Assembly: GCA_965645245.1 (NCBI GenBank)
Contig: OZ287080.1
Coordinates: forward strand, 186,001 to 250,000
Length of the DNA stretch: 64,000 nucleotides
Reading direction: 5' to 3'
DNA from: Massalongia carnosa
Taxonomy: Eukaryota
Part shown: in pieces, positions 2,542 to 47,468 of the stretch
Numbering within the stretch: position 1 is the first letter of the stretch
Layout of the letters: every line of letters begins with the position of its first letter
Position numbers and translations under genes: made by a program
The notes under the pieces: model-generated
Told to the model about the DNA's origin: nothing
The model's database searches: none
Seen by the model: the letters and a program-made list of their open reading frames with translations, nothing else

Positions 2542-2812
2542 GTAGGGCTTTAAAAAGCGTAGGGATTGAAAGAGGGTAGGGATTTAAAGAGAGTAGGGAC
2601 TGAAAGATTGTAGACGTTGAAAGAGCGTGAAGACTGAAAGAGAGTAGAGAATGGAAGGGAGTAGGAATTCAAAAAGCATAGGAACTAGAAGAGAGTAGTG
2701 ACTGAAAGGGAGTAGAAACTGGAAGGGAGTAGGGACTGGAAGTGGGTAAGAATTAGACGAGAGTAGGGACTGAAAGGGAGTAGTGATTGAAAAGGAATAT
2801 GGACTAAAAAGC
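2542..2812. repeat. 17-bp degenerate tandem array, about 16 copies (consensus GTAGGGACTGAAAGAGA)
   Basis: Units start at 2542, 2559, 2576 ... 2797 with constant 17-bp period and divergent copies. Confidence 0.9.
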
Positions 2813-3714
2813 CCCAGTCATTTCAAAGCCTTGGGCGTTTTTCTTGGCTAGGGACTTTATTTCCCCAGAGCTTTTATTCTCCCAGGGCTTTCGTTTCCCT
2901 ACTCTTTTCGTTTCCCGAGGGAATGAAAGCCCTAGGAGAATAAAAGTCGTAAGGAGACATAACTCGTGGGACCAAACTCGTAGAATAAAATTCTTAAAAT
3001 ACACACCAAAATTAAAGCAAAAATCTAGATTAATCTAATTGTACTCCACGCCTCTTTAATTACTGATTGCCTTTCCTTTTCACTCGCTTTTTCCAAGTCG
3101 GTTCTTTTCTTCGCCAACCAGCCTACGGATGTCTTGATCAGAAACGTCAACAGTGCTCTTGAAGCAGCTAAGGCGTCAAATCCCATCTATGAAGTATTCC
3201 GGGGGACTTGTGTCGCGATCCGTACGCCCACAAGACTGAATCCGCTTACATGGCCGAACATCAACAGCGCGTGCGAAAGGAGACGAAAGATGTATCTCGC
3301 TGAAGTCGTGGACGCACCTCATACTTCTTTCCATCATCGTCGATAAGGGATGCTCTTCCATTCCGAAAGTGATTTAGCACGATTAGGGTAATTATTAGTA
3401 GCAATAAACACGTCATACGATTTTAACCGAAAAGAGTTTAATGTGCTGTTGGTAGTTGCATTACTAGCTTGTACGCACCCTGGATGAGCAGTGTTTACTA
3501 GCAAAGATTTACACAAGGGGGGACGGTCGGGGGGACTGTCCCTAAGCATCTGGGCTTGACGTATTCAGCCTTATGTGGATATCATTCAGCCCATTCAGCC
3601 GCGCAACAATAACAGCTTGACTGATGCTTTCTGTACCACTCATTTCCAAAGCCAGCCTCTGCACATTCCTACCAGGCTAGTTGTAAAAGTAGAAGAAAGC
3701 TAGGACCTTCTATC

Positions 3715-6700
3715 ATGCCAGATAAAGATTTATGCCTATTATCTCTTGACGGCGGTGGAGTGCGAGGGCTATCGTCACTCGCAATCCTCAAGCGACTGAT
3801 GGAGATCATCAATCCGGATGCGCCGCCGAAGCCATGCGAGTATTTCGACATGATCGGAGGGACAAGTACCGGTGGATTGATTGCTATCATGCTAGGTCGT
3901 CTTGAGATGAATATCGATGAATGTATCGATGCCTATGTCGCATTGTTCGATCAAGTGTTTAAAAAAAAGCCGCATCGTGTCACAATAAACGGACACGTGC
4001 AGGGGAGATTCGACACGGAAGAGCTGGAACGGTCGATTCGAGAAATCGTAAAGCGGAAGGAGAAGGCAGGGGAAAATGCTCTCCTCAAAGGATCAGAGAA
4101 TCAGCAATGCAAGGTGTTAGTGCTTCGGAAGTTGCATTTATACGTATAATTCAAGTGATACTAATGAAAGCTAGATTTGTATGCGCTCTGAGCAAAGAGA
4201 CTGCCGACACAGTCCTTTTCACATCGTATCCTTCTCGAGGATCATCAGATATGTATCATAAAACACGAATTTGGGAGGCAGCTCGAGCCACATCTGCCGC
4301 ATCATCCTTCTTTGATCCAGTTAAAATTGGCCAGTTTGAAGAAGAATTTGTCGATGGGGCTGTGGGGGCTAACAATCCTGTCGCACATCTTTGGAACGAG
4401 GCCAAAAGTGTGTGGTCAGATGAAGCGCTTGAGGGGAACATTAAATGCCTGATATCTATCGGTACCGGTGTTCCATCCTTGGATTCTTATGGCTCAAGCC
4501 TCTTCGAGATTGCAAAAGCGTTGAAAGACATTGCAACAGAGACAGAAAAAACAGCGGAGTCTTTTCATCGAGCGCATTCAGATCTCGACGATGGGAATCG
4601 CTACTTTCGTTTCAATGTTTCTCATGGGCTTGAGAATATTGGACTCGAAGATGCAGCACAGAAGAACAAGATCATGGCCACCACAACCCGCTATGTAGCT
4701 TTGGAAAGCGTGATGAAACAAATGAAGCTGTGTGGAAATAATTTTTCAACACGAGAATGTACGTCAATGTTGGCTTGATAATTCTTGAGTTACTAAATCC
4801 TTGAATAGACACTGGTTCATATAAAGTGCCATTCAGTTTGAAAGGCTTACCCCGTGTACCCAAATTCATAGCTCGTGATCAGGAGATGAATGACCTTAAG
4901 GAAACCCTTTTTCCCAAGCCAACTCGTGAGACTCGCCGGAAGGTGTTCGTTTTGCACGGACTTGGCGGCTCCGGCAAGACTCAGCTAGCAATCGAGTTCG
5001 CTCAAAGATCACAGAAGATTTTTAGTTCTATTTTTTGGCTAAACGGCGATAGCAAGGAAAGTGTACGTCAAAGTCTTGCACAGATTGCTCAGCAATTGCC
5101 CAAAGATCAGATACCGGATTCATGTAGAAAATTCTCTAAAATATCCCCTGAAGAGCTAAATGAAATTATTCGCAATATTCTTATTTGGTTCAATCAACAT
5201 GAAAACAATCAATGGCTTCTCATTTTCGATAATGTCGATCGTGATGATTCTCCTGAGGTAAATGATCCTCAATCATATGATGTGAAAGATTTTTTCCCGG
5301 GAGCCGATCATGGCTCTATTTTAATCACAAGCCGATTACGACAGCTTCGACAACACGGGCAGGACCAGCAACTTGGAAGGATGAGCGATCTACAAGGAGT
5401 AGAAGTATTACGATGCAGGATAGGACGATCAGTTGAAGGTAATGAAATTTAAGCAACAGTCTTAATCCAATTTACTAAGCATTATATAGGCCTTGATAGG
5501 ATCGTCGAGAAAGTGGGTGGTCTCCCACTTGCACTTGCTCATGCAGGCTCCTATATCCACGGAACGACTACAAGTGTGAAAGACTATATTCGATACTATG
5601 AAGAGACTTGGGAGAAGCTTCACAACAACAAAACGACTCGATTAAAAGATTATCCTCGTAGCATTTTATCTACGTACACCATTTCCTACGAATATGTGCA
5701 ACGCAATGACGCGAGCGCTGCAAAATTGCTTAATCTGTTTGCATATCTCGATCATTCAGATTTATGGTATTCTTTATTCACACCTGTACTTGACAGCATT
5801 ATCTCAAAAGAGACATTACCTATCTGGTTTTCATGTATCATGAAGACGGAATTTGATTTTACACAGAAGATTCAAATACTGCTGGATTACTCCTTGATAG
5901 AAACACGATATGAGATCTCATCTTATGCGATTCATCCAATTATACATGACTGGTGTTTTCACTTGAATCTAACCTCTAACGACGAGATAGCTTCTTTAGC
6001 AGTTTCTGTAATCGGTTCCGCATGTCATTCCACTGACAGTTCAGCAAACTGGCTGCATCGAAAACGACTGGCTGGTCATTGTAGTTATGTTCACTTCTGG
6101 ATTGGAAAAAAACCTCAAAACCTCGAAAGGAACATGAGATGGGAACAGGTGTTATATTTTTCGTATTATGATATTGGCTATTTTTCAAACGAACAAGGCA
6201 AGCTGAAAGAGGCCAAAGAGATGTATCTGCGGGCATTGACAGGATACGAAAAGGCCAGAGGTCCTGATCACACATCAACGCTCGATATAGTCAACAATCT
6301 AGGAAATTTGTATAAAAATCAAGGCAAGATGAACGAGGCCGAAGAGATGTATCTGCGGGCATTGACAGGGTTCGAAAAGGCCTGGGGACCTGATCACACA
6401 TCAACGCTCGAAACAGTCAACAATCTAGGGCGTTTGTATGCAGATCATGGCAAGATGAACGAGGCCGAAGAGATGTATCTGCGGGCATTGACAGGGTTCG
6501 AAAAGGCCTGGGGTCCTGATCACACATCAACGCTCGAAACAGTCAACAATCTAGGGGGTTTGTATGCAGATCATGGCAAGATGAACGAGGCCGAAGAGAT
6601 GTATCTGCGGGCATTGACAGGGTTCGAAAAGGCCTGGGGTCCTGATCACACATCAACGCTCCACACAGTCAACAATCTAGGGCGTTTGTATGCAGATCAA

Positions 6701-9334
6701 GGCAAGATGAACGAGGCCGAAGAGATGTATCTGCGGGCATTGACAGGATACGAAAAGGCCTGGGGTCCTGATCACACATCAACGCTCGCCACAATCAACA
6801 ATCTAGGAATTCTGTATAAAAATCAAGGCAAGATGAACGAGGCCGAAGAGATGTATCTGCGGGCATTGACAGGATACGAAAAGGCCTGGGGTTTTGATCA
6901 CACATCAACGCTCCGAATAGTCAACAATCTAGGAAGTCTGTATGCAGATCAAGGCAAAATGAACGAGGCCGAAGAGATGTATCTGCGGGCATTGACAGGG
7001 TTCGAAAAGGCCTGGGGTCCTGATCACACGTCAACGCTCGCCACAGTCAACAATCTAGGAATTCTGTATAAAAATCAAGGCAAGATGAACGAGGCCGAAG
7101 AGATGTATCTGCGGGCATTGACAGGATACGAAAAGGCCTGGGGTCCTGATCACACATCAACGCTCCACACAGTCAACAATCTAGGGCTTTTGTATGCAGA
7201 TCAAGGCAAGATGAACGAGGCCGAAGAGATGTATCTGCGGGCATTGACAGGGTTCGAAAAGGCCTGGGGTCCTGATCACACATCAACGCTCGGAACAGTC
7301 AACAATCTAGGGCTTTTATATGCAGATCAAGGCAAGATGAACGAGGCCGAAGAGATGTATCTGCGGGCATTGACAGGGTTCGAAAAGGCCTGGGGTCCTG
7401 ATCACACGTCAACGCTCGAAACAGTCAACAATCTAGGAATTCTGTATAAAAATCAAGGCAAGATGAACGAGGCCGAAGAGATGTATCTGCGGGCATTGAC
7501 AGGATACGAAAAGGCCTGGGGTCCTGATCACACATCAACGCTCGGAACAGTCAACAATCTAGGGCTTTTGTATGCAGATCAAGGCAAGATGAACGAGGCC
7601 GAAGAGATGTATCTGCGGGCATTGACAGGGTTCGAAAAGGCCTGGGGTCCTGATCACACATCAACGCTCGGAACAGTCAACAATCTAGGGAGTTTGTATG
7701 CAGATCATGGCAAGATGAACGAGGCCGAAGAGATGTATCTGCGGGCATTGACAGGGTTCGAAAAGGCCTGGGGTCCTGATCACACGTCAACGCTCGAAAC
7801 AGTCAACAATCTAGGGCGTTTGTATGCAGATCATGGCAAGATGAACGAGGCCGAAGAGATGTATCTGCGGGCATTAACAGGGTTCGAAAAGGCCTGGGGT
7901 CCTGATCACACATCAACGCTCCACACAGTCAACAATCTAGGGCTTTTGTATGCAGATCAAGGCAAGATGAACGAGGCTGAAGAGATGTATCTGCGGGCAT
8001 TGACAGGATACGAAAAGGCCTGGGGTCCTGATCACACATCAACGCTCGCCACAGTCAACAATCTAGGAATTCTGTATAAAAATCAAGGCAAGATGAACGA
8101 GGCCGAAGAGATGTATCTGCGGGCATTGACAGGATACGAAAAGGCCTGGGGTCCTGATCACACATCAACGCTTGGAACAGTCAACAATCTAGGGCTTTTG
8201 TATGCAGATCAAGGCAAGATGAACGAGGCCGAAGAGATGTATCTGCGGGCATTGACAGGGTTCGAAAAGGCCTGGGGTCCTGATCACACGTCAACGCTCG
8301 AAACAGTCAACAATCTAGGGCGTTTGTATGCAGATCAAGGCAAGATGAACGAGGCCGAAGAGATGTATCTGCGGGCATTGACAGGGTTCGAAAAGGCCTG
8401 GGGTCCTGATCACACGTCAACGCTCGAAACAGTCAACAATCTAGGGCGTTTGTATGCAGATCATGGCAAGATGAACGAGGCCGAAGAGATGTATCTGCGG
8501 GCATTGACAGGGTTCGAAAAGGCCTGGGGTCCTGATCACACATCAACGCTCCACACAGTCAACAATCTAGGGCTTTTGTATGCAGATCAAGGCAAGATGA
8601 ACGAGGCCGAAGAGATGTATCTGCGGGCATTGACAGGATACGAAAAGGCCTGGGGTCCTGATCACACATCAACGCTCGCCACAGTCAACAATCTAGGAAT
8701 TCTGTATAAAAATCAAGGCAAGATGAACGAGGCCGAAGAGATGTATCTGCGGGCATTGACAGGGTTCGAAAAGGCCTGTGGTCCTGATCACACGTCAACG
8801 CTCGAAACAGTCAACAATCTAGGGCGTTTGTATGCAGATCATGGCAAGATGAACGAGGCCGAAGAGATGTATCTGCGGGCATTGACAGGGTTCGAAAAGG
8901 CCTGGGGTCCTGATCACAAATCAACGCTCAACACAGTCAACAATTTAGGAAGTCTGTATAGAAATCAAGGCAAGATGAATGAGGCCGAACAGATGTGTCT
9001 GCGGGCATTGACAGGATTCGAAAAGGCCTGGGGTCCTGATCACACATCAACGCTCGCCACAGTCAACAGTCTAGGAATTCTGTATAAAAATCAAGGCAAG
9101 ATGAACGAGGCCGAAGAGATGTATCTGCGGGCATTGACAGGGTTCAAAAAGGCCTGGGGTCCTGATCACACGTCAACGCTCGAAACAGTCAACAATCTAG
9201 GGCGTTTGTATGCAGATCAAGGCAAGATGAACGAGGCCGAAGAGATGTATCTGCGGGGCTCAAGCGGCTTACCTGTGCCAGGTATGACAATTCTAGGCAG
9301 GACAAGGCCTGATGACATATTCAACGTCGAATGA
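3715..9334 (+). CDS. Fungal NLR: patatin-like phospholipase - NB-ARC - TPR array; exons 3715-4115, 4175-4758, 4809-5438, 5490-9334
   Basis: Patatin motifs LSLDGGGVRG, GTSTG, DGA; NB-ARC Walker A GLGGSGKT, Walker B WLLIFDNVD, GSILITSR, GGLPLAL; three GT-AG introns (4116-4174, 4759-4808, 5439-5489) with branch-like CTAA sites join the ORFs in frame (CKV/FVCA, TRE/YTGSYKVPF, VEG/LDRIVEKVGG). Confidence 0.95.
6194..9256 (+). repeat. Coding TPR tandem array: 24 full 126-bp (42-aa) units plus a partial 25th
   Basis: Units from 6194 to 9218 (3024 bp = 24 x 126); consensus QGKMNEAEEMYLRALTG(F/Y)EKAWGPDHTSTLxTVNNLGxLY(AD/KN). Confidence 0.97.
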
Positions 9335-9507
9335 AATCAAATCAGTACCGTCTGAAAGCTAGTTGAATCTTGCTGGCAATGGTGCAATTGGAATTCTATA
9401 GTTCAGTTGAGAGGGAACTTTAATGTAAGGGGCGCAGGGGCGCAAGGCGTACGGGGGAAGTTTAAATTTCTTGGCATCTTGTCTCGCTGTGCCAAATCGG
9501 ATCTAAT

Positions 9508-9609
9508 AGGAATTGAAAGAGAGTAGGGATTAGAAGGGAGTAGTGATTGAAAAGGGATAGGGACTAAAAAGCCCCAGTCATTTTAAAGCCTTGGGCATTT
9601 TTTCTGGCT
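9508..9609 (+). repeat. About 100-bp direct-repeat copy of 2745-2849
   Basis: GGGAGTAGTGATTGAAA...GGACTAAAAAGCCCCAGTCATTT(C/T)AAAGCCTTGGGC present at both places in the same orientation. Confidence 0.9.
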
Positions 9610-10206: not shown

Positions 10207-12480
10207 TTATGGCCGCTCGTAAGGTGGTGACCTCAAGAGGAATTTATGTAACCAATCTGCACGCAAAGGCCGAATGACAGTCAAGTGGGTGTCTTGTGAA
10301 CCAAATCCGCATGGTTCTGCAAGTGCATTGTGCTTGTCAAAACATCTTGACACCTTGGATGAAGGCATGCGATCGGATGACCGTCTTGGTGATGAGGAAG
10401 GTGTTTTACAATGGAAGTGCTTTTTCAGATCGTAGCGGCTGTGGAAAGACTTCAGACGTGTCTCGGTGGGTAGCGCTACACAGCCGAGGCAAAAGATACA
10501 TTGAGTGGGTTCGCATTCAATCGGGATGGAGTCTGAAAGAGAGGCCGGATCGAGGACAGATGGTGGTGTCAGATGCCGTTCCTTGATGACCGACGCGGAA
10601 AGTTTTGAACGACGTGGACGCTTGCCTTCCTGCAAGCGACAAAGGGCTGTCAAAGCATTGATCTCTTCCACCCGCCGCTTGCACTCTTCCTCTGAGGATG
10701 ACGTCGCGAAGGTGAGGAGGTATCGATGACCCGGACACGCTCCTCGAAGACGTAATCCTCTGCCTTCGCCGTCTCCAGTTCTTCCGACGGCAGTCCTTTC
10801 AGCTTTCGTTGAATGTCGATCACCGGCTGCTCCCTCTTATAGCTCGCTTTGACCTCTTGTAAAAGAGCCTCCTCTGCCACCGTTTTATGTTGCGATGAGC
10901 TTGATACGCCTTTTGGTACTTATCGTATACTGATGTCCCCTTCATGCTCGCGATGGGTCCATGATTGTCTTTGATGAACTGGAACATTTTCTTTTGCCTC
11001 CGGCGAAGGAGTCTCACCTCTGGGTGACGATCGACCTGGGCTTTTTGGGCGTCATTGAGCTTCCGAGGCCGTCGTCGATCAATCGTACGACTCATTCCAC
11101 TGGCGAGCCGCATCAACGCATTTTACGGCTTCAAACCACGATAGGCGGCCCCGGTATCACTTGTGATATACCTCGAGAGATAGATTTTTAAGAACACGGT
11201 GGAGTTATGATGTTGCAAAATCAGATTCCGTTGCGATTCGCTGATGAAGCCTGTGCAAGGGTCAGCGAAAAGCTCAAAAGAAGATTGACAGAGGTCGTGT
11301 TACACACTTGCTGTTGTCGAGAGCTTCGCTATTGCCGCGTCGAAAGATGTATGAACCGGTGGGAAGCTTCATGCCGGTGACGCTTCCAAGGGTTATCATC
11401 CGTGAGCGAAGAGTACTATCAGGCAGAGCTTTGTCATCCGAAATTCGAACTCCGTTCACGGTGAATTCGGATCGGCGGAAGAGGAGAACATGTAGCATCG
11501 TTTCCTTAAGGGGAAACGGCAGCTGTTTCTGTCCCGGGGGGATCCGGAGACGGAATAATTGTTCGGCAGAAATCAATTCGGGAGCGGCGAAGGCCTGAAC
11601 GTTAAAGATCAAAGTGAGTAGGTTCAGACGAGGACAAAGCAGCAGCCATGGTTCGTCAGGCTCGTCAGGAATCCTGAACTCATTTCTATGATACTTGTCA
11701 GTCGTTCAGCGAAACTGTCCGTCTCGACGAAGAAAGCACAAAAGGGCAACATGGACGTTTCTCTATCGCCTAATAACCCTTCGTATTCTTGAATGCGATT
11801 TCAATCAACCGTCGAGGAAGCTCCCCTCCTTCGAGATCCGGAAGCAAGGTGATCTGAACATCTTTGTAGCACACACCCAAGAGGGCAGCAGGACGGTTGT
11901 CTGTGATTCCGGCTAGCTGCATGATCAAGGCTAGTTGTACACGGTGCCGCTCGTGATCAAAGACGATCTCGACGAAGTCGTCCTCGGCCCGCATGATGAG
12001 CTTCTTCTTCTTCTTCTCAGTCCTTAACCCATGCTTTAGAGCGAGCCGTTGTCTCGCCTAGTACTGGTTAATCAATAGAGGCGTAGCGGGGCTCTCGTAC
12101 CCCGTGCATCTGGCTTTTGATAAGCGGGTCGATCTCTAGACAGCCAGTCTCTTTCTTTCGCACTAGACAAAAAATATTCCAGAATGTTTGCAGGGTACGA
12201 GTACTAGCCGCACTCAGCCGATCTTTTCGAATGGAGAGTAGCCAGTCGAAGAAGACGTAGAGGATGTTGATAGAGATCTCCTTGAGAGTCATGACGGGGT
12301 TCTTCCTAGTGAATTCGCAATATCTGTCAGCCTCGATCAGATTTCGCCAGTCCACGATAGTCGTAGTAGCATCTCCTTACCGATACCAAAGGTTCTTAAT
12401 CCAGCTCGATAGATCCTCGCTGCTATCCTTGTAAACTCGTTCAGGGAAAATTAGAGTCGACGAGCGTGGATGATAAGTGA
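10207..12480 (-). pseudogene. DUF3435 tyrosine recombinase (Starship captain-like), multi-exon, frameshifted
   Basis: WIKNLWYR/YCEF (intron 12324-12380), FFDWLL, FDHERHRVQLALIMQLAGITDNRPAALL, NTKGY, YIFRRGNSEALDNS, QRNLILQHHNSTVFLKIYLSRYIT, GMSRTIDRRRPRKL, C-terminal CEPTQCIFCLG zinc-finger-like region; frameshifts and small deletions; start codon not located. Confidence 0.85.
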
Positions 12481-15637: not shown

Positions 15638-18446
15638 CTATCTACGAAGCAGATCCTCTCCAGCGTCAATACGCTTAGAGATCTGATGTCCAGAGAACCC
15701 CAAACTGTTAACTTCCCGCGCAATATCCCACGAATCCCTCCCCTGCTCATTCGCCTTCCCCTGAAGATACCGACGGATCCGTCTTTTGACGTAGAACCGC
15801 TGCCTCATGGCAGGAGTGTACCTCCACTTAGCCCAGAAGAGGTGGTCCAACTCGTCGAGAGACGTACGCCGGACCACCTCCACCAACGTATCCACCGCGA
15901 ATTCCTCCAACACCGCCTCCGTCGAGGTCACGCCGCAGAGAATGGGCTCCGCCAGGCAGTCAGGAGGACGTTGAGGCGGCCCCTCTTGGGGGAGGGAGCC
16001 ACAGGGCGCAGAGACCGTAGACGCCTCTCGACGCTACCTCGATCCTTTCTGACGGTTCCTGTGGAGGCTGTTTGGAGGGACTGGCTGCTGGACGAGGCTT
16101 CTCGGCGAGGGCAGGCGACTGCTCTTGCGACGGCGGCACATTCCGTTGGTGAAGAGCCTGCTGCGTCGGCGTACTCGTACGTCGACGCAGCCGCTTCTCT
16201 CCTTCCTACACCTTCTGTCGTCCTCACTTCCGTCCCCGGAGACCGTGGCCTGCAACTGTGAGAGCTGCGAACCCAGGACTCGAGCTATCTCCTAGGCATT
16301 TGCCGCCGGCAGCGCACTCAAGATGGTCGTTAGCTGGCTCTGCCCGGAGAGCAACCTCTCCACAGCGTTGAGCGTGCGATCTTGCTTGATCGCAACACCG
16401 CTGACCTTATTACTGACGCCATCAACGGAGTCAGCAACAAGAGACAGCACGCCGTGGATGGCCACGTGCAAAGGTTCCTTTTTTACGGCCTCCAACTCCC
16501 GTATCTTCGCCACGAACGCAGGCCAAAGGGGATCTCTGAAGACTTGGTGTCTCCAGAGTGAAAGCTCAGGAAACTAAGGCTGTAGAAACGCCGCTTCTTG
16601 CAGGAAGACACAACGCAGCCGCAGCAACATCTCCAGAACCTCCTTCACTGCCTTATCCGCATCAGGAAAAAGACCGCCTTTGTACGCCGCCAGAGCATCA
16701 TCCACCCAAGGCCACACCTGCCGCTGCAGGGCCAGATCCGGTGAGTGTCCTCCTCTTCTCAAAAAGTAACTCCCGGGGGAGTTGCCAAAGCCGGCGGCGC
16801 GACGCATGTAGACACGCGGCAGGCGGGTGAGGTAGTTAGTGGCCCAGACGCCACGTTCCCATCCGCCTGCTCTCATGATCTTTAGTAGTTGGTATAAGGG
16901 TAATGCTAGTAAGTATAAGGGGCCATGAATCATAGAGTACTTGCCTGGTCCGCGGGGACCTCTCACATGTCGGCCAGCCGTGACGAGGACTGCCGCATGG
17001 TGTGGACCGTCTTGGAGCTGTCGACGCCGACAGCATCCAAAGCCGGCTTAATCCAACGGGCCTATGTTTTGTCGGAGATTTTCTCCTTAGATCGCGCCAG
17101 GCTCCCGGAGATGAACTTCGTGAAATATCACGAAGATCGATCTCGGAAGTCCGGCCGCTTCTCTAGAAGGAGGTCCTAGCGCAAGACGAGCCAATGGGCG
17201 AGGGCGCCGAGAGGACAGAGGACGACATCTCTGCTCCGCAAAGCACCATGATAATGCTGACGGCGCGAGTTGCCCCCGTCCGCCAGAGGAATGCTCTTCC
17301 CCTGGCCAATTCGAAGGATCAACGCAAGGCATTCGGACCCCTCGTTAGGAAGGTCGTAGGCGCAGAGGTCAGGTAGCTCAGCCCTTCGCGTTGACTTCCC
17401 CCGCAGCATCATCGAATGCATTAGAAGGAAGTCGAGGCGAGTCCGCAGAAGATGCCACTCGCCGCCCGCCACGCCCTCCTCCCCCAAAACCTTGCCCCCG
17501 GCGAGCAGCATTGCCGAAAATTGAGCGGCCTGCTCAGTCGTGCAGCCGTCGGTGAGGCCGTGGATCGCGCGATCCTCGAACGAGGCTCGCTTGAAAGCGC
17601 TTCAATCGATGCGTAAGCGCGTCATCAGGGCTTGATGACCTTCCCTCTGGGATGGGGCACCACCAAATTCTCTCCGAGATGCTGATCATCGAAGAGGACG
17701 CAGAGGGCAGAGACGTAGCCCGATTCCACGCTATCGGGCGCCAGGGGTCGGGATAAAGGATCGTCGGCTTGCTGCAAGACGAGTCAGTAAGCTACAAAAA
17801 GATGATTCTATTCCTGAATTCGAGTTCAGGGGGCGACTCACCGTCTCAACGAGCTCCTCGCCGTCGGAGAATTCCTCGAATTTTTCCACCTCCTCCACCT
17901 CCTCTCCCTCTACCGCTGGCGAGGCTTCCACCGCCTTCATCGCCTTCCCCTTCCCCCTCTTCAACGCGCGGCGCTTAGCTTGCCGTTGGCGATTCTGATC
18001 CCGTCGCCTGGCCTGCGCTGCTGCGCCTGTGAGCTTGGGACGTGGGACGAAGCGCAGGCGGAGGACGACCTCTTCGAGGAAGAGGAGCATCTTCCGCTCC
18101 CACACAAGGACGCCGTCAGGAAAATTGCGACGTCGGCACCACTTCTGTAGGATGTTAGCGTAGGCCCAAATTTGCAGGGCATACCTATCGTAGTCACCTC
18201 CCACATATGCCAGCACTTGCGGTACGTCTTAAGGGTGTTGGCCCTCCGATCCTCCTCCCGCATCCCGCGGACGCGCCTCATGGTGACGGCCATGGCGGCC
18301 TTGTTGTTGCCGTGGGTGGCATAGGCCTGAGACTCATGCTTGACGGCGTCGACATCAACGTAAGCCTCAGGAGGAGGCCAAGAAAGAGGCGCGGCCGTCT
18401 CCAGATCTGCGACAGCTGGGCCTGCAGCGGAGGGGCCCGGGTCCAT
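15638..18446 (-). mobile_element. Crypton-type tyrosine recombinase gene (Ndc10-II-like YR domain + GCR1_C-like C-terminus), intron-containing, degenerate
   Basis: LRTRLDFLLMHSMMLRGKSTRRAELPDL, IGQGK, GALRSRDVVLCPLGALAHWL, LLRLRCVFLQEAAFL, and SLDELDHLFWAKWRYTPAMRQRFYVKRRI; GC-rich block; element termini not identified. Confidence 0.8.
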
Positions 18447-18817: not shown

Positions 18818-21800
18818 TGTTCATTTGTCGGACTAACGGCAGAGATTATGTAATAAGCGAGACAAGCTCATACAAAATTCTCTTCTTGTAAATTTAGGCT
18901 TAGAGGATTCATCATTCCACTATCAAGAGTTATTCTTCTGACGTAAATATAAATTCATCATAGAGCTCATTGTTATCATACATTCAGCTCAACATCATTT
19001 AACAGGTTACGAGCCCGGTTAGCCTATAGTGCTGCCGAGTGATTTTCTTGTGTCAGTTTCGAGGTTATACATAACGAGATGGCGGACCAACGCGACTCCA
19101 TAGACCCTAATACACCAGCAAGTATGACCAGCCCTTCCCCTCATCCCTCTTCATCTTCTGGCCCTGATGGGCAGTATTCAAAAGCGGTAAGGAAAGGGGA
19201 TATAAGGGTAGAGCCTAAGCTAGGTGTCGATACTTATTTAACCTGGGCGGAAGAGATGTGGATTCAGCTTAAATCTATGAGAGTCCTCAAGTTAGTAGAA
19301 GGAAAAACCCCTCAACCAGATACAGTAGCCCGACCAAAAGACTTTGATGAATGGGACCACGATGACACCAACGCATTGAAATGGATACGAGCCAACTGTG
19401 AGAAAAGCCAATTGACTCATCTTCGAAACAAAACAACATCCAAAGCCGCCTGGGACGCTCTAAAGAAGGTCCATGGAGTCCACGCCAGAGGAAGAATCAA
19501 CTATTTATTGAAGCGATTCTATACCTACAAGGCTGGATCCAGCGACTTTATCGATGATATAGCAGGGGCCCTTGCAACGTTACGAGTCCAGATTGCGGAC
19601 ATAAAATCGGAGTTAGAGCCTCACGATGCGTTGATGGCCATAGCCCTGATGAGTGCCGTGGAGGACCCTGCATTTGATACAACAAAGCTTTTATTGGAAC
19701 GGGAACCCGAGCTTACCTTGGAAGCGACTAAGGAGGCCTTGAAAGCGACGGAGCAGCGACTAAAATTCGAAAAGGATGACTCTGTCGAGGATGCCCATCG
19801 AGCGGATGCAAAAAAGGGTAAAGGGCCACCAAAGAAGTGCGACCATTGCGGGAAACTTGGACATATCCGAATCTATTGCTGGAGCTGGCTCGATGACACC
19901 GACGAAGGCCAGGAATGGGAACGCACCCATCCCGAGCAACGGAGGAAACCGAAGTCCAAATCCGAAACATCAAAACCTGAACCCAACTTGAAATCACGGA
20001 GTACCACTAGGCCTACCTCCACGAGCAATACCAGTTCTTCCAACTTCTGTGGCCGAAGCAAAGGCACTGCCCGGCCGGCCAATGAAGAGGACTTTGACGA
20101 TGGTGCCAGCGAGGATGAGGGGTGGATGGCCGTGGATATAAAAGAGGAGGTTATTGATGAGAAAGTTGAAAAATTAGAAGAAATTTTTGAAGTTCGTGAA
20201 GGTGCGGAGGATAAAACTAGTGGCTGGATGCTAGACTCTGGTGCTTCACGTCATATGACCTATATGCGAAATATCTTCACGAAATTCGAATACCACCGCA
20301 CCCCAATTCGAATTGCTAATGGCCAGAGGCTTTGGAGCAAGGGTAAGGGTGATATTTCTGTGGATATCGATGGTGTTGCCATTCGCATGACCGACGTTTT
20401 ATACGTACCCCAACTGGATGCAAACCTACTGTCTATTTCGGCATTAAACAAAAAGGGGTTAAATGTCTTGTTTCATGGAAAAGGTGTGGAGATCCTGCGG
20501 AAGGGTACCTCAGTGGCCAGCGGTTTTCTTAGAGGACGTCCGTATTTCTTGCGGACTTCTCAGGTTGCCTTACAGGCATTCGCGGAAATCAGCGAAAATA
20601 TCGAGGAAGCCAACCCCGAAGATCCTAAATCATCGAACAAGCCTACAATAACAGCAAGAGATTGCACGCGAGGAAAATCGGTATCACCTGTTAGTCAAGA
20701 AAGGCCAGAAGAGCGTGAATACAGGCTGTGGCACGCCCGAATGGGTCACCCCAGCCCAAAACGACTCCAGGATTTACACCGCTATGCGTCTGGAATAACT
20801 TCTTATTCACCAACTGTTACACAACTCTCATGTTCTATCTGCAACTTTACCAAGTTAACTCGAGTGGTCAGTTGTGAGCTGTTTTCGAAAACAGTCCGGC
20901 CATTGGCTAGGATTCACACGGATATCTGGGCCCCTATCGTACGGCTAGCCTCGGAGGCCATTCGTACTCTATTTCATTGATTGATGATTTTACACGGAAG
21001 TCCTGGCTAATTCTCCTTAAAAACCGACGGACCATTTATGGAGCTATCAAGAATGGATCGATGTCGTTGAAAGAGAAAAGAATCAGCAGGTAATCAAATT
21101 CCGATGCGACAATGCTAAGGAGTACAAATTCATGGAACTTATTCGACCCGATGGCATTCGCGCTGAACCCACTACACCGTATACTCCAGAACAGAATGGA
21201 GTTGCGGAACGATATAACCGAATAATCGTTCAAATGATTAGGTCCATGCTCGTATGGGCGAAATTGCCTCATTCCTTCTGGGGAGAAGCAGCAATGACTG
21301 CTAACTATCTCAGAAACCTCCTTCCTACCGCCAAAGTAGACCGGTCACCCGAAGAAAAATGGGCGGAGCAAAAACCGGACATCTGCCATCTACGCACCTT
21401 TGGCTGCTTGTTCACGTTCATATCCCGAAGGAAAATCGATCCAAGCTGGATAAAGTATCCTGGCAAGGAATTTTCGTCGGATATCACTCTTCAAACCAAT
21501 ATCGCATTTATAATCCAAAAACGAGCGAGGTAGAATGGCATACTTCAATTAAGTTCCTAGAAAATACACCCGGCCATCAAATGCATTGACTGGCGTAAAT
21601 GGCTAATAGCAATAGACGAGGAGCTTTGTGCCCTCATAGCTAATGGCACATGGGAGTATTGTAAGCGGCCGCATGGCAGAAATATCGTGACGTCCAAGTG
21701 GGTATTCAAGATAAATATACAACAATTTCATAGACCGCTACAAGGCCCGCCTAGTTGCAAGAGGACATACACAAATATTCGGCCTAGATTACGAGGAGAC

Positions 21801-22972
21801 CTTTCCACCCACACTCCGTCAGGAATCTTTGCGGATGCTCTTGTCGTTCGCAGCATATTTCGGGTTTGAAATCGAGCAAATGGATGTTCCGAATGCCTAT
21901 CTTAAAGCGGATTTAGAAGAAGAAATTTACATGCCCGAAGGCCTCACGCCACCACCAGGCTATGAAGACTGCGTATTATGACTACGGAAGGGCCTTTACG
22001 GATTGAAGCAATCCGGACGAGAGTGGAACAAACGAATATCTAAATTCCTGCGTTCTATTGGCTATAAGACCCTCACAGGCGATAATTGCGTCTTTGTCGA
22101 CCAAACCTCGCACATAATCATCGCGTTGTACGTAGATGATTTACTAATTTTCTCAAAAAGCAAGAAGCAACGATCAGTGGTTACGTCAACCATGGAGGTA
22201 GAATATTCATCCATGTGCCAAGCAGGCAAGGATATCGTATGGGTGACAAGGTGGATGAATGAATTGGGATTTGGCAAGCATATGAACTTCCCGATCAAGC
22301 TGAACGGTGATAATCAGGGAACCCTCGACTTGATCAGAAACCCCGAGCATCATAGCCGATCAAAACACATCGACATCCAATTCCACTACCTTCGCGAAGT
22401 CATCAACGATGGCTATGCTTCAACCGGTCACGTATCCACAAATGAGATGATAGCTGATGTATTCACCAAGCCCTTGGGAGCAACCATGTTCAAAGAACTA
22501 CGAGCCAAGCTTGGTGTGCAAGAAGTGGAATAAGAAAAGGGGAACACAGGCTCGGTGGGAGCTAATGGACCAAATCGGATTGCACACAACAGGTCCAAAC
22601 CAAATTCAAATTGCATACGGAAGAGGTGAATTGACATAGATTGATAAACGGTTTAGGAGTTAGGGATACAGGTATATTTTCTGTTAAGATTTCTCAGCTG
22701 ACTTTGCAGTGGGAGTGTTGCGAATGCCAAGCCAGCTGGATCATATCTGATGCAATATGCGAATGCCTTCGCGTATTTTACTGATATGGGAATAGTTACA
22801 TCTGAGAATTTCTGGAATCTTCGATGCTTAGAAATTCAGATCTATAGACGTTCGAGGAGAATCTCGAATGTTCTGTGATCAACATGTATATAACATCACT
22901 CCTACGCATAGCCTAGAGATCAGTCGCAATAATCTGAATTATTTCATCCATGCTCAGGCCATCAATAAAACA
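18818..22972 (+). mobile_element. Ty1/Copia LTR retrotransposon remnant, internally deleted
   Basis: TGTT...AACA LTR-like segment 18818-19004 followed by PBS-like GGTTACGAGCCC; gag-PR-IN-RT-RH order; PPT-like AGTGGGAG followed by a TGTT...AACA segment 22716-22972. Confidence 0.9.
19079..22533 (+). pseudogene. Copia gag-pol polyprotein, frameshifted and deleted
   Basis: CDHCGKLGHIRIYC knuckle, WMLDSGASRHM protease, LWHARMGHP, TPEQNGVAERYNR integrase, LYVDDLLI RT, SKHIDIQFHYLRE RNase H. Confidence 0.93.
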
Positions 22973-23047: not shown

Positions 23048-26000
23048 GAGAAGACTCGGGACAGTCCCCCACCGCTCCCCCAGCGAAAATCATTGCAAAT
23101 TAGGACTAGCTACAAGCCACCTCCCCATACTAAATAGTTATGTGCACGTCCACCGTCTCTCCGCAAGTTTTCTCTAGCTGATTTAGCTTAGCCCCGCATT
23201 CTGAAAAATCCTCATCTATTCATACTACAACTAATACTACTACTCCGACCACTCATTGCGATGATCTCAATTCCGAAAATGCATCACTCATTTGCGAAAC
23301 ATCATCCTTTCTAGGCTTCATAGTCTTAGCAACCTTTTTGGCAGCTGCGTTTTTCCTCTCCTCAGCCCTTGCTTGTTTGGCCGCTTGGTCGGCCCTCTGC
23401 TGAGACTCCAACACCAATTGAGCCTTCGATTTTTTGGCTACCACACCCTGTGACCCTCATGTTGTTGTTGCAGACGATGTGGATTGTAGCTGGCTAGCGC
23501 GGATGTTATTTTGACTGAGGCTATAAAGGGGAGGAGCTTTTGGATAGGGAACTGTTTGGGAAGAAGCCTTTTGACCATGTTTCGCCAGCACTTCATCAAT
23601 ACCTTCAAATGAATCGGAAGAAGATGCCGGGGATGGAGGGATAAAATCATCGTTCTCATTCAGAGGGAGTGGAGGATCGGGGGTAGGCTGAGTTGCTATA
23701 TATTGCAGGTCATCGTCGTCAGATACGATGATAGCATCTCCAGAATCTATACCGAATATTAGCCGCGCTACATCGATCGATTTGCTGATATCGTGGGTTT
23801 TTTTATCATCAATCATACCCTTGTCTTCACCGCCTGCCCGTAATTAATCCTCATGCCTTCCTCTCCTCCCTTCTTCTTCAATCGAGTCCTTACGTTTAGC
23901 ACGTCGCTGCTTAGCTAACATTCTCTATTGATTTATGAAAATCAATAGATTGATGTGCGGCCGCATGCAGCAAATCAACATTCCCGCGACGAAATCTATC
24001 CCCAGTATTATTGTCAACTGCATTCTCGATCTCCTCTTCCGGCTCAGATTCTTGTCTTTGTTGAGCATTCCCCCCCTCATCCGCCTCCTCATCCTGCTCT
24101 TCTGTGGTCTTCCTGTGAGCTGCTCTCCGAAACATCTCAGCGAAACTTATGGTGGGGTCGAAAACCATTCTCCACGAGACCACAAAAGGCGGGCCATCGA
24201 AAAACCAACGGGGATGAGTGAGGGAGATAGGTATGAGGATAAGATCAATGACGCAATGATCCAACCAGCATCTGCATGGGAGACCGTATCGTGAAGGCAA
24301 ATCACAATCATACATACAATCCTCACCGGTTGGTTCGATTAATGCAGTCCCTTCAACTCCAAAAGAAACCTGTTGATTGAAATCTTCGGCTAAAAGTTTA
24401 GCTGCATCTAGCTCTCTAGATATGAGGTTAATAGCATGATGAGTTATTAAAACTATAAGGTCTTTGAACACACTTCTATCCATTAGCCGGGGGTTGTTGA
24501 TTCGTTGATGATTGGTTGATATTTCGTAGTCAACCTGAACCCTTTGCACTGTTTCGCATATTTTCCGCACCGAGTCCTTAATAGGTGTATGCCTATTTGT
24601 CACATTCTTTACCAACGGATGCAAATCTTCCACCCTTTGTGTGCTATGTGCACCTAAATTAGGGAACTTTTTGGTGTATGCGGAAACAAACTGACACTCC
24701 TAACGTTGATAATAGGTGGTAAAATACTCCTGGAAATAGGAGTGAGTTAGCCCTTATTAACGTTTTTTGATAGCTTCATACCTTTTCTGAAGCATGAAGC
24801 TTCAACATCAACGCGTTTCTTTTCTCATCCAGCTGTTCAACGGTAGGAGTTTTGATCCACTCCCATATCAATTCATGCAGCTCTTTCCGTACTTCTAAAG
24901 GATATGAACCCGCCCTGATCAGGCGTTTCTTGATTGCCTCCGCTGCGTGCCACGTGCATAATTGCAACACACAATCAGGGTCGGTTTCGTGTATTGATTG
25001 GGCGACTTGCCATGCAACGGTCATTGCTGCATCCGGGTTTATTTCCTTAGCCCGTTTTTTATTCATCGCTGCACTCAATCCAGCGGCGAAGTCTCCGAGG
25101 ATGACCCTAGGACCAGGCACGCGCGTGACAGAAACAGGCGGACACCAAAATAAGCGAATAGCATCAAATTTGAACTTGCTACCATCTACAAAACAGTTAC
25201 CATCCAGTCATCTTGCCATTCATGTCTAAAACGTCATCTATTCTTTTAGGCATTGATTCGATCCATTCATTGATCGTTTCCTGAGAAAGACTGACCCAAC
25301 CTGCCTCAATTGCAGCTATTGTGGTGTCATCATCCCAATGAGGTTGACGACCTACCCGTTGTTTGGGCACCTGCCAGCAATTTTCGATAGGAGAAAGATC
25401 ATGAAAACGAGGGCAGTTGAAGTAGTATTTTAGCCCATGCTCGTCCTTCCATCTTCGTACAATATTGTCCTTCCCCGATCCATGTCCTGAATCGCCATCT
25501 TCTTCCAACACGAAATTCGGGTCTGTTTCGAGCCATGTTTTTACTACCAGTTCCAGAATGAAGTCAATATACACCTTCTGACTCATCTTTCCATTCGAAT
25601 TGCTGGGAACCTCATAAAAAATCAGCTCTGATTTGAAGTTCCACCCAACAGCAGCCCAACAATGATATCGTTTCTGTTTTTTGTCCTTCTCTTCAGGCTC
25701 ATGCTGTTCCTGAATGGAATCCTGACACGTACGCTCGCCAGGTATTCGAATGATGCGTAGTCTTCGTTGAGGTCCTCGTCCGAAATGAACTTCATCGGAA
25801 AAGCGAACTCTTATCCAATCATTCAACGAGTATGTGTTTCGTTTGTTCCAAGCCCAGTCCTTTTGTGCAATCATCAAATCTTTCGGGACGTAGGTTTTTG
25901 TGCATGCGAGACATTTACAATAATTTCGTTCATGCATCGCTCGTTGTATAGTACGCCAGGAGACGGAGGAAGTCTCAGCAGCTGCACCCAGTTGATTCCA

Positions 26001-27623
26001 GGTCAGTGATCTTCCCTCCAAGCCCCAGGTTTGCAATATTTCATCCATACGATCTATCTGCTTCTTTGACAATTTGCGAGGCTGACCACGAGTCTCCGAT
26101 TTGTTTGTATGACCATGCTGTCGATTAGTTTCTTGATCGTTGAGTATTTCATAACCTCGAGTATGTCCCACGCCGAAAAACTCGAAAACCTCTCGCTTTG
26201 AACGCAAAATTCCTTTCGCCTGCAAAAATTCAATAGTACCCTGAACTTTCGCCTTGGTAGGAGTGGTATGCTCGGTATTTATAGTGATTCATGACTCTAG
26301 AACAGGCTCCATTGCTTATTAAGAATTGATAAATGTGTGTATGTACGATGTAAAAATTAAAAAACTAAGGAGTGGGTGGTGCGGGGAAATTTTGGTGTCC
26401 GCCTGTTTCTGTCACGCGCGTGCCAGGACATGTATCATGAAAAAAGATATCTTTCATACAATCAAATAGAAACGTAAAGCACTCAGCCGATTCAGAAGTT
26501 ATATAACAATAGGCCGCGGGGAGAGTCTGATTTGTGTTGGTGATGCCAACCAACACCGATAGAGGTAAGTTCAACTGATTTGTATTGAACGTAGCATCCA
26601 TTTCTGTCAAAAATCCACTGACAAATCATCTAGTCAGTCGGATCTGTTCAGCGTTATAGAAAAAGAAATGTTCAACAACACGTCTTCGGGGAGCATTGTT
26701 TTCAACGAGATATTTCTCCAAAGTCCGTACATGAAACCCTTCTTCTTCTAGAAATCCAAGTGCATAGGTAAACTCTTCTTCAGGTGTATTTTTGCCCTGG
26801 GATCGAGCTAGGTTGTAATAGTCCTTCTTCGAAAGGCGCAGGCCAGTCATACCCAAAACGCGAGATGCTTAACCGTATCTAGTTAATGCATCACGGAGAC
26901 TTTTTGCTTGATCTAGGGCAGTTGCTCGATCGAGGTCTTGGCTACGATGCTCTTTGAAACCGAAGGGGTCTGTAGCCATCTCGTGATTGTGATCAGGGTT
27001 GGTGATGATTAATCTCCACGATTTGTCTTTATTTTGCTTCAGTCTTGGTCGATATTTGCACTCGTTGAACGAGACCTTCGTGTTTTTTCGTACGCGGTCC
27101 TTCTCCTCTAGCTTTCTAGTGTTTCTTTCTCTTTTGTGATGCGGGTGCAATCTTAGTATAACGAGATGATTCTTCTTATCATTAGTCTCTGTGACCAATG
27201 CAAAGCCTTGAGTAAAGGCATAATTCTGAAGGCGGGTTTTTCCCTCCTCCCAGGAGATAAAGACTTCACTCTCACTCGGAGGAAGACGATGAGACGACGG
27301 TAAACTCGCTATAGCCCTTTGCAAACGTGCATCCAGGGACGTTGATGTGAGGGCCATAGCAAAGAAAAAGATAAGGGAGAGAAGAAGGGAGGTCTACCTA
27401 TCATAGTGATAAATTTATACAGTGGTTGGCTGCCTATACCTATAGTATTATTAATAATAGGAGCGGGTATGATTAATTGCCTAGGTATACAACGTTCTCA
27501 GCTAGAGGAAGAGACGTGAACGAGGTATATGCACCCAATTATTTAGTATGGGGAGGTGGCTTGTAGCAAGTCCTAATTTGGAATGATTTTCGCTGGGGGA
27601 CGGTGGTGGGACTGTCCCTTCTC
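23048..27623 (-). mobile_element. Mutator-like element (MULE) with about 120-bp imperfect TIRs, fragmented transposase
   Basis: TIRs near 23058-23180 and 27498-27618 (GGGACAGTCCC...GCTACAAGCCACCTCCCCATACTAAATA); MDATFNTNQLNLPL, VILGDFAAGL, LQLCTWHAAEAI, YGLPCRCW; no TSD found. Confidence 0.88.
25117..26423 (-). mobile_element. Tc1/IS630-like DD37E transposon inserted into the MULE transposase
   Basis: TIRs GCACGCGCGTGACAGAAACAGGCGGACACCAAAA at both ends; RVRFSDE...FVLEEDGDSGHG...DLSPIENCW; ATG at 26312 followed by an early TGA; splits the host reading DTCPG/PRVILGD. Confidence 0.93.
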
Positions 27624-30562: not shown

Positions 30563-32173
30563 CCATATTCTCATAAGTTGTTGTGCTCTCGTTTCTTTTC
30601 TATCTGCTCATCTTTTTGCTGTCTTTCAACAATTGCTCGTTGCGCATCCTCCTTCGTGAGTCCTAATCCTCCGTCTGTCGAGTAATTAGGTCTTAATCGC
30701 TTGCGAGAAGTTGCCCTCTGTAGTAATTCATTGCTTCTTCGCTCATGATGAAGTGACAGTTCGAATTTCGTAAGCGTCGATTTGGCAACAACTTCCTTCG
30801 TATTACTCACGAATTCCTCTAACTCCTGTTTCCGGACTGGATCACTCCATTCTGTATTATCGCGAATTTTGGGTAGCCATTCAAGTAATCCTCTTTTAAC
30901 ATCATCAAATGTTTTAGGTTGAACTCGTGGCAATTTTGGGAGAGATAATGTTGGAAAAGAAGAAGAATTATTCTCACTTTGCGAAGGTACAAACTTCTTT
31001 AGCTGTTCAGAGCATTTCTTCTCATTAATAGGCCACATTCCAGATTTTTCAAAGGCAGATTGAATAGTGGATTTCTTGAATGTGTTATCTCGTATTTTGG
31101 TGAGATCTTGACAAAATCGAGTTATTGTATACTCTATATTGAACTCCGCAATCGCATCTTGAATGGCCACATCATGCCAATATTTATAAGGTTGAAACAC
31201 TCCTACATTAAGCGGTTGCATACAATGCGTCAAGTGTGGTATTAAAGGATAAGGACGAATCCGGTTTTCATTGGCAAGCTTGATGAATTCAGGAGTAACA
31301 TGACTACCGTGATTATCCATGAGCATCAACTTCCAATCACTCTCAGATCCTGCATCAGAATTTTCAATGTAATGTTGCAGATATGCAATCGCTATTTTAT
31401 CCGATGTGAATCCATTTTCTGACGAAACAATTCGAGTTCCTTTAGGCAGTTCGTCTGCAAACCAATTGCTCATCATATCATAACCTTGTATGACAAGTAA
31501 AGGAGGTGGCGGATAATCACCGGCGGCGTTTATATTCTCGAAAATGGTGATAGATTTTCTATTCTCAGGACTAATGGAATAATACTCCTTTATATCTGTT
31601 GGGACCAAAATTTCATGTCCCTTTATGCAGCCAACTCGAAAACCAGCCTCATCAAAATTGATGATATTTCGTTTATTCTTGATATTCAGCTCTCGAAGAA
31701 CCACCCGATAATCAGCGAACCATGCTTTAACGTCCTTTACTTGTCCCGCCGTATAGCGAACGACTGCTAGCGGTTTAGTCTTAATCTTATGTAAATGGTT
31801 GGATTTCCACCATGTTCTAAACAATCGCTTAGTAGGACCTTTATAATCAGCATTCTGACTTCGCTTTAAACTCTTGATCGCGTTAAATATCAGTTCATGC
31901 GTCGGTTAAATACTATATGTAAGTAACAAGCGAATGAACTCATATATTGCTTTGATCTGATGCTTCTCCAATATCTTATTATGTCCTCCTCTCTTCTCGA
32001 CTTCATTCGACGCGCTGTTTTGAGCAAGTGAACTTTGTAAAGCGTGTGGTACGAGGAATGTCAAATATGCGAGCAGCGCATATCTTGCTTTCAAGTGGAT
32101 TTTCTATTAGAAACTGCTTAGTATCATTCAGACGCGTGACAGTATCATTATAATTCATGATGATGATCAATAA

Positions 32174-37140: not shown

Positions 37141-37442
37141 TCTCCGTTCAACACTATGGGTCGACAATTGTCGATGAGAGTAACTTTTTCACATTGCTCT
37201 TCTTTCAGTGCAATCAAAGGCATGATTATCAACACTGACTTGCAAGGCGAAAACATCAAAGGAGCAGCTTGAAATAGTATGCTTTTTCCGAAGCCTGTTT
37301 TTGCTATCAAAATCAAATCCATCTTATCGCACAACAGATGATGAAGTGCATCTACCTGCGCCCTCTTTAGACGAAACCCGAAATAACGATCAATAACGCT
37401 CTCGATCTTCTCAAGAGTCAACGCCTGTATCGCGTTGTTCAT
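37141..37442 (-). pseudogene. 5' fragment of a RecQ-like DEAD/DEAH helicase
   Basis: DLILIAKTGFGKSILFQ (motif I) and IIMPLIALKEEQ (motif Ia); homology stops at the LTR edge. Confidence 0.8.
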
Positions 37443-37966
37443 ATTGATGTAATAGCGCTACAATCTTGATCGAGTTTCGAACTGTCAAAAAGCACGCTAG
37501 CAAGGACGACTAGATTTTCGAGTTCGGAGCCCTGAAGGACTACAATAACTTGATCCGTCAAGGCAATATGATTGATATAAGCGCCGACCGTTAATTTGAA
37601 GAGCAAGACTCAGTTTGATATTGTCGTGCTGTTGTCGGGATTTGAGAAACAATTTGAGTCGATGTTGCTCGACGAGGAAGATATTCGCGCGACGCATGCA
37701 GGGCGTTTAAATTTTAGGACATTCAATAAAGCATATCTGAAAGTAGCGGCGACAATGAAGTATTATATAACAATTACCATGTGTTGTCGTTGATCCTGTC
37801 CTGAACGTGAAAAACGATTTTTTATCTTAAGCACGAAATTTACATGTTGTTGAATAGGTCTATCACTATGGCTCTATGACTATGTAAAGATAGGGGCCTG
37901 TATGACCATGATGTTAAGGATGCAGAGTTGCTACGGAGTGCAGAGCAATCTGTTCCTTTTATGTTG

Positions 37967-47398: not shown

Positions 47399-47468
47399 GA
47401 TGGTGGAATATGAGGGGGGACAGGGGCTAGTGCTATGAAAGGCACCTTTCGATGTAGGTCCGACGTAA

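Follow-up and report, generated by a model that had tools for sequence, protein, structure and literature searches.

The DNA analysed here (the window) is a stretch of 64,000 nt from the fungus Massalongia carnosa (GenBank assembly GCA_965645245.1, contig OZ287080.1, positions 186,001 to 250,000 of the forward strand), in which positions are counted from the first letter. The gene under study occupies positions 3715-9334 (+) and is a Patatin/NB-ARC/TPR NOD-like receptor (NLR) gene with high internal repeat conservation, the C-terminal part of which is an array of tetratricopeptide repeats (TPRs). Its four exons give a frame of 5460 nt (1819 aa) that is open throughout. They are separated by three short GT..AG introns with branch-like motifs (4116-4174, 59 nt; 4759-4808, 50 nt; 5439-5489, 51 nt), and the sole in-frame stop, at 5450-5452, falls inside the third intron. 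Exon 1 (3715..4115, +) carries the start codon and the N-terminal half of the Patatin domain (Pfam Patatin, E = 1.1e-15), including a glycine-rich oxyanion motif and a GxSxG serine motif, both read in the translation. The C-terminal half of the domain with its DGA aspartate motif is encoded by exon 2 (4175..4758, +; Pfam Patatin, E = 2.4e-8), and exon 3 (4809..5438, +) encodes part of NB-ARC (Pfam NB-ARC, E = 7.5e-7; AAA_16, E = 3.9e-8) with Walker A (GxxGSGKT) and Walker B motifs. Exon 4 (5490..9334, +) holds the remainder of NB-ARC (with GLPLAL), followed by a linker with a weak Pfam match to DUF7779, the TPR array in full and a tail of 26 residues that ends at the stop codon. Six units of the array, searched against Pfam, matched TPR_12 (E = 2.9e-76) and TPR_10 (E = 1.1e-57). 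The gene looks functional, as the frame is open and every expected catalytic and nucleotide-binding motif is present and intact (patatin glycine-rich, GxSxG and DGA; Walker A, Walker B and GLPLAL).

The repeat array and its variable codons

The array (6194..9256, +) consists of 24 units of 126 bp (42 aa) and the first 13 codons of a 25th unit, where it halts and is followed by an unrelated, non-TPR tail of 26 residues (partial unit and tail together, 9218-9334). All 24 units are in frame. Their mean pairwise difference is 8.8 of 126 nt, i.e. 93% identity at the DNA level, and protein identity is 89%. Tandem Repeats Finder reported the array at 6194-9257 with a period of 126, 24.3 copies, 92% matches, 0% indels and a score of 5113, in agreement with the 24 near-identical units described in the original prediction, which had been made from the DNA letters alone.

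Within the unit, variation is concentrated in two codons. Codon 31 (site 1; 6284..6286, +, in unit 1, recurring at 6284 + 126k for k = 0..23) follows the residues STL and is represented among the 24 units by seven codons for seven residues (D1 E8 H4 A5 R1 G4 N1). Codon 38 (site 2; 6305..6307, +, in unit 1, recurring at 6305 + 126k for k = 0..23) follows NNLG and is represented by six codons for six residues (N1 R7 G1 I6 S3 L6). Each of the remaining codons takes at most three residues, and 11 of the 29 extra residue states of the unit fall in these 2 of its 42 codons (binomial p = 4e-8). The order of residue pairs at the two sites that had been read beforehand was reproduced in 24 of 24 units, and the accompanying switches were also real (AD in 16 units, KN in 7 and RN in 1; Q in 18 and H in 6; F in 16 and Y in 8). 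The description of the array as a two-position code proved too narrow, as positions 41/42, 18 and 1 switch as well, and positions 18, 41 and 42 are highly variable in related proteins. Synonymous variation had been called sparse, which is correct in part: variants occur in 11 codons, at intermediate frequency in four of them (17, 27, 37 and 39), and in the scaffold defined below synonymous differences exceed non-synonymous ones.

The proportions of non-synonymous (pN) and synonymous (pS) differences and dN/dS were obtained as Nei-Gojobori counts over all pairs of units, which is a counting method and not a site model. Codons 31 and 38 together gave a pN of 0.53, a pS of 0.18 and a dN/dS of 4.6. 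The switch codons (1, 18, 41 and 42) gave a pN of 0.22 at a pS of 0, with dN/dS undefined, and the other 36 codons (the scaffold) gave a pN of 0.015, a pS of 0.105 and a dN/dS of 0.13, or of 0.07 when units 1, 22 and 23 were left out. Codons 31 and 38 show a strong excess of amino-acid change over the scaffold, and the contrast, which had been proposed as a check on the original prediction, is large (about 4.6 versus 0.13 by this count).

The codons at the two sites had been described as switching by multi-base changes. Many pairs of alleles do differ in this way, but the alleles are linked through single-base steps. All six alleles of codon 38 end in T and are joined by single-base steps, and each allele of codon 31 is one or two such steps away from an Asp codon, Asp being the site-1 residue of unit 1 and the consensus at this site in four of five related proteins. 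A special mutational mechanism acting at codons 31 and 38 was rejected as unnecessary, given these single-base connections. Repeat-induced point mutation as a source of the variation was likewise rejected, since 24 transitions were found next to 19 transversions and no stop codons were present.

An AlphaFold2 model of ten units (pLDDT 89.3, pTM 0.80) consists of regular helix pairs, with helix B at positions 4-22 and helix A at positions 27-42 of the unit; the variable positions 31, 38, 41 and 42 all lie in helix A. Foldseek matched the model, at a probability of 1.00, to KLC1/KLC2, OGT and consensus TPR superhelices and also matched it to APPBP2, and the match to 6FUZ had a TM-score of 0.79 (normalised to the target) and a root-mean-square deviation of 3.7 Å. 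For comparison with other TPRs, we set the invariant Leu-Gly of helix A to TPR positions 7 and 8. In this register of our own choice, codon 31 becomes position 2, codon 38 position 9 and the AD/KN switch positions 12 and 13, while the invariant Asn-Asn pair occupies positions 5 and 6, between the two hypervariable sites. According to Magliery and Regan, the most variable TPR positions are 2, 5, 9, 12, 13, 33 and 34, all of them on the concave face, and positions 2, 5, 6, 9, 12 and 13 touch the peptide in HOP TPR complexes. In a helical-wheel projection, the variable positions face 342 degrees, opposite the packing residues, which face 205 degrees. Mapping onto a predicted structure, another check proposed beforehand, placed the sites in helix A at canonical ligand-facing positions; their shared location on the concave face is probable as judged from TPR numbering and helix geometry, not from coordinates. 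Position 18 (the F/Y switch) lies late in helix B.

Exchange among repeat units

The array carries the signature of concerted evolution through unequal exchange: private variants are concentrated at its edges, with 7, 4 and 4 in units 1, 22 and 23 and 0-2 in every other unit. Five consecutive units are duplicated in tandem: units 11-15 (GL, GS, ER, HL, AI in residues at sites 1 and 2; 7454..8083, +) and units 16-20 (GL, ER, ER, HL, AI; 8084..8713, +) differ at 7 of 630 nt (98.9% identity), and two of these seven differences hit hypervariable codons, giving G/E and S/R between units 12 and 17. Units five apart are unusually alike when compared with shuffled orders (mean 6.84 differences, p = 0.008, uncorrected for the 12 offsets tested), and so are units ten apart (p = 0.027), the lowest p among the other ten offsets being 0.149.

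Exchange within units is implied as well. Of 36 pairs of biallelic informative columns, 22 carry the full set of four gametes; at least three exchanges or recurrent changes within units are required (Rm = 3), and 17 block haplotypes were distinguished among the 24 units. Unit 10 joins an ER-type front to a complete I cassette, which differs from the R cassette at eight bases, some of them synonymous, and in unit 7 the front is of the ER type but the back is AI; both mosaics are hard to explain by recurrent mutation. The residues at the two sites are nevertheless not independent, as 11 pair types occur where 16.6 would be expected (p = 5e-5), and 17 of the 24 units belong to just four types (ER, AI, HL and GL). 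The array is built from a small set of unit types, whose order changes chiefly by rearrangement of entire units or blocks and now and then by exchange inside a unit, and it is no free two-letter code. The original prediction had taken the recurrence of alleles in new pairs as a sign of crossovers between the sites. Recombination as such is supported by the mosaic units, which imply at least three exchanges or recurrent changes, but exchange between the sites is needed in few units only (6 and 10), and the free combination of pairs fails against the observed association. That specificity is rewritten by shuffling, the further proposal made there, is the standard model for receptors of this class, and the duplication of the five-unit block fits it.

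The same association gives weight to a different history, in which a few founder types that already differed (ER, AI, HL and GL) were recently amplified in blocks to form a young array, and the hypervariable codons were inherited with no ongoing diversifying selection. The predominance of the four types and the shortage of pair types are what such a history would leave behind, as is the 98.9% identity of the block copies, and linked synonymous changes also separate the I from the R/L cassette. Old differences should, however, be spread over the unit, yet 13 alleles, all of them non-synonymous, fall in two codons on a scaffold with a dN/dS of 0.13. Change at both codons is further shown to be continuing by the alleles seen once only (D, R and N at site 1; N and G at site 2) and by the two replacements, G/E and S/R, that separate unit 12 from its duplicate, unit 17. 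Independent arrays in other fungi are hot at these positions too. We consider amplification of pre-existing types without continuing selection unlikely.

Somewhat less probable still is that the order and number of units and the recombinant pairs are artefacts of an assembler confronted with a 3-kb array of 93% identical units. The longest exact repeat inside the array measures 167 nt, so that ordinary short reads cannot fix the order; no piece from the other sequencing runs aligned (see below) spans the array, and contigs that lie inside it fit several places. An artefact of this kind would have to coexist with a perfect 126-bp phase, a frame that is open over 3 kb, the lack of any indel, an orderly gradient of private variants from edge to centre and a clean five-unit duplication. 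The 64 kb, filled with transposons, are moreover contiguous, which suggests long reads. None of these counterpoints amounts to proof.

Words of the stretch were found in 20 listed runs from 12 studies, with 37-61% of the words in five of these runs; no RNA run was among those listed. Contigs from four runs of three studies (one labelled lichen metagenome) were aligned and matched the non-repeat part at about 95-99% identity. They read through all three introns unspliced and thus behave as DNA. Contig depths are not interpretable, and bins without cover are uninformative. In three runs, some contigs track the window upstream of the start codon and others leave it at position 3702 into a common, different sequence. 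Several contigs also diverge near the stop codon, where indels would alter the 26-residue tail. These two points of divergence suggest that the gene has a second copy, or a divergent allele, with another 5' flank. At contig joints with extra letters near codons 40-42, hand translation gave Lys-Asp, Phe-Asn, Leu-Asp and Asn-Asp at TPR position 12; as paralogues or other organisms are a possible source, these further position-12 variants in other samples are a hint only.

Genomic surroundings

The NLR gene is bracketed by a 103-nt direct repeat, the upstream copy of which (2747..2849, +) forms the end of a 17-bp minisatellite and lies 866 nt before the start codon, whereas the downstream copy (9507..9609, +) is found 173 nt past the stop codon and is 87% identical to it. 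The two copies are 6760 nt apart. The minisatellite (2541-2849) has 15 copies upstream and about 4 downstream of the NLR gene. Insertion, duplication, or deletion of the original 3' end of the array are candidate origins of the bracketing repeats.

A DUF3435 gene (tyrosine-recombinase type; 10650..12057, -) lies convergent with the NLR gene, about 1.3 kb from its stop codon. Four ORF (open reading frame) pieces match the family (Pfam, E = 7.7e-35 to 1.2e-7) and span positions 16-391 of the 418-position profile. Introns or frameshifts split the gene into at least four frame pieces, with further ORFs up to position 12979, and the gene may be broken. A DUF3435 'captain' beside PLP/NLR genes is referred to as a 'Starship-like' region by Gluck-Thaler et al. 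2022 (PMC9156397), and the Tangerine preprint (10.1101/2025.11.25.690456) reports such elements in lichen-forming fungi. Here, the neighbour of the DUF3435 gene is a patatin-like phospholipase gene and an NLR gene in one, a co-location of this Starship-like type. Neither DUF3723 nor the ferric reductase family was found among the 52 non-NLR ORFs of the 64-kb window (Pfam). Two ORF pieces at 16574-17601 (-) match NDC10_II, a domain of Crypton-type recombinase elements, and may mark a second recombinase-type element near the DUF3435 gene.

The rest of the window is mostly occupied by Ty3-type, copia-type, Tc1/pogo, MULE and NDC10_II-type ORFs, and the NLR gene sits in a transposon-rich compartment. 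Transposon-dense spans were located at 19043-22533, 25197-26288, 30571-31905, 35936-39261, 42183-47470, 48632-49921 and 58706-62096; their ORFs include copia-type gag/reverse transcriptase, DDE_3, DDE_1 with HTH_Tnp_Tc5, two MULE transposases and a long Ty3-type pol (1346-aa open frame) with capsid. An ORF with an OTT_1508-like deaminase domain (40147-40767, +; E = 1e-18) lies amid transposon ORFs, and a 385-aa ORF at 52694-53851 (+) strongly matches Pfam Collagen (triple-helix repeat, E = 4.9e-35), an uncommon find in a region of a fungal genome.

That the gene is a decaying remnant in a Starship-like or otherwise transposon-rich region, its array drifting without function, would suit the nearby DUF3435 gene, the density of retrotransposon and DNA-transposon ORFs, the end of the array in mid-repeat without a cap and the bracketing 103-nt repeat, but is the least probable of the alternatives, as the 5460-nt frame is open, the introns are canonical, the catalytic and nucleotide-binding motifs are intact, the scaffold is under strong purifying selection (dN/dS 0.07-0.13), neither a stop codon nor the transition bias of repeat-induced point mutation is seen (24 transitions versus 19 transversions), and cargo status would not exclude function.

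Proposed function and comparison with known systems

A protein search with the linker returned 20 proteins at E <= 0.001 among 1024 candidates of 704-2240 aa. The best relatives are proteins from metagenome-assembled genomes labelled Vezdaea aestivalis (51-57% identity in the linker) and Pycnora praestabilis (45%); the N-terminus is patatin in some of the linker relatives and of another type in others. A scan of metagenome contigs with the unique linker gave 196 pattern matches and no relative. In five related proteins of other fungi, unit positions 38, 31, 41/42 and 18 are among the six most variable ones (the variability script took six proteins, including that of the window). Because the same positions are variable in these relatives, the variable surface is a conserved property, which in the relatives includes position 18.

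We consider it likely that the encoded NLR uses the helix-A face of its TPR superhelix to bind a ligand, with specificity set by positions 2 and 9 (and 12 and 13) and changed by rearrangement of the array. The array would serve as the ligand sensor of an intact ascomycete NLR, its 24 KLC-type repeats of 42 residues forming the C-terminal superhelix and the NB-ARC domain acting as the switch. The likely effector, of the death or membrane kind, is the patatin-like phospholipase at the N-terminus. The repeats would be held near identical by concerted evolution, through unequal crossing-over and gene conversion, while amino-acid diversity would be kept or favoured on an exposed stripe of helix A, at TPR positions 2 and 9 and more weakly at 12 and 13, where the variable residues flank the invariant Asn-Asn pair. 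Block duplication, gain or loss of units and exchange within units would reorder a few unit types and in this way alter the binding surface. Encounter with the cognate ligand, be it non-self or modified self, would then lead NB-ARC to oligomerise and activate the patatin domain. In this scheme, it is the concave-face location, selection as the cause of the diversity, ligand binding and the cell-death output that we infer from the features described above.

Several points weigh against this explanation. The dN/dS values were counted among paralogous repeats that exchange sequence, without a recombination-aware site model, and the likeness of units five apart has an uncorrected p. A PHI-like permutation test for the clustering of incompatible sites was not significant (p = 0.061). 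Given the strong association of the two sites, part of the diversity could stem from a few old, amplified unit types. The placement of the variable positions on the concave face is geometric in the sense given above. Contigs from other runs are short, and none of those aligned spans the array. The array lacks the diverged capping repeat and the basic tail in which the Vezdaea relatives end; because it stops in mid-repeat whereas these nearest relatives end in a cap and a basic tail, the 3' end of the array may have been rearranged. For PLP-1, the Neurospora crassa receptor considered below, the gene and its partner sec-9 are reportedly genetically linked. The 52 other stop-to-stop ORFs in the window gave no Pfam match to a SNARE family, in a search that covers 64 kb only and can miss short or intron-split genes.

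By analogy with other repeat proteins, the array might recognise, module by module, a polymer in extended and unfolded form (most likely a peptide), with the order of units forming a sequence-specific recognition string. The Asn-Asn pair of each TPR would then act as a backbone clamp, comparable to the asparagine ladder described for the lumen of the OGT TPR superhelix, and positions 2 and 9, one helical turn to either side, would read side chains by a logic like that of TALE or PPR proteins. We regard this as improbable; if true, block duplication and unit exchange would rewrite the recognition string, and should the NLR gene also be Starship-like cargo, the rewritable sensor would be mobile.

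The locus represents a very clean and unusually long (24-unit) case of the architecture that is thought to generate recognition specificities in fungal NLRs. DNA of the host fungus occurs in lichen metagenome runs, and NLR biology is little explored in this group. With its few variable positions, an invariant Asn pair between them and a visible five-unit duplication, the array would be a convenient model for the relation of unit order to ligand specificity, and also for the speed at which an array changes between individuals.

Among proteins of solved structure, the repeats match best by sequence the KLC TPRs (E = 2e-41, KLC1), and a Podospora 42-residue repeat protein (4Y6C) matches as well. 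They share the 42-residue repeat and the Asn-Asn-Leu-Gly/Ala motif of helix A with the KLC TPRs (3NF1, 6FUZ, 7AI4) and likewise resemble 4Y6C. Unlike the array, KLC has six diverged repeats without internal conservation, binds cargo peptides and is not an NLR.

In its architecture the gene resembles PLP-1 of Neurospora crassa and PaPLP1 (het-z) of Podospora, two NLRs that function in allorecognition by monitoring SEC-9, a SNARE (Heller et al. 2018, via PMC12881547). According to this 2025 review (PMC12881547), PLP-1 kills on meeting an incompatible SEC-9, for which the patatin domain and the P-loop are required, and the participation of patatin NLRs in allorecognition, assumed at the outset, is thus documented in the literature. 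Like these proteins, the Massalongia protein is of the patatin-NB-ARC-TPR type, with the catalytic serine and aspartate motifs and the P-loop intact; the likeness is one of architecture.

The closest parallel is provided by the NLRs with high internal conservation (HIC) of Podospora anserina, such as Pa_2_10340 and PaPnt1, which likewise combine an effector, NB-ARC and near-identical 42-residue TPRs with a few hypervariable positions and shuffling. That HIC repeats occur in fungal NLRs had been stated correctly in the original prediction (PMC4986451, PMC13449251). Dyrka et al. 2014 (PMC4986451) describe an enrichment of highly conserved TPR, ANK and WD repeats in fungal NLRs, repeat-number polymorphism of NB-ARC/TPR NLRs between Podospora isolates and three positively selected TPR positions, the variable positions all being concave in a KLC2-based model. 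In GBE 2026 (PMC13449251), long reads link internal conservation with length polymorphism, repeats are reported to be exchanged between HIC TPR NLRs (e.g. PaPnt1), and the het-z product is given as a patatin/NB-ARC/TPR NLR. The cut-offs for HIC in these papers are over 85% (Dyrka 2014, PMC4986451) or a T-REKS Psim >= 0.7 (PMC13449251). The Massalongia gene has the tripartite architecture, a repeat conservation of 93% (DNA) and 89% (protein) and an excess of amino-acid change at few positions; Podospora HIC NLRs are in part defined by the polymorphism of repeat number between isolates, whereas the Massalongia array is known from one assembly. It differs from the Podospora genes in its distantly related host and in its 24 units, which exceed every exact count in the PCR table of Dyrka 2014 (PMC4986451; 2 to 13 units, next to lower bounds from '>13' to '>16'). 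Mechanism, selection pattern and domain architecture are all known from earlier work, and the locus adds a clean new example of them rather than a new principle.

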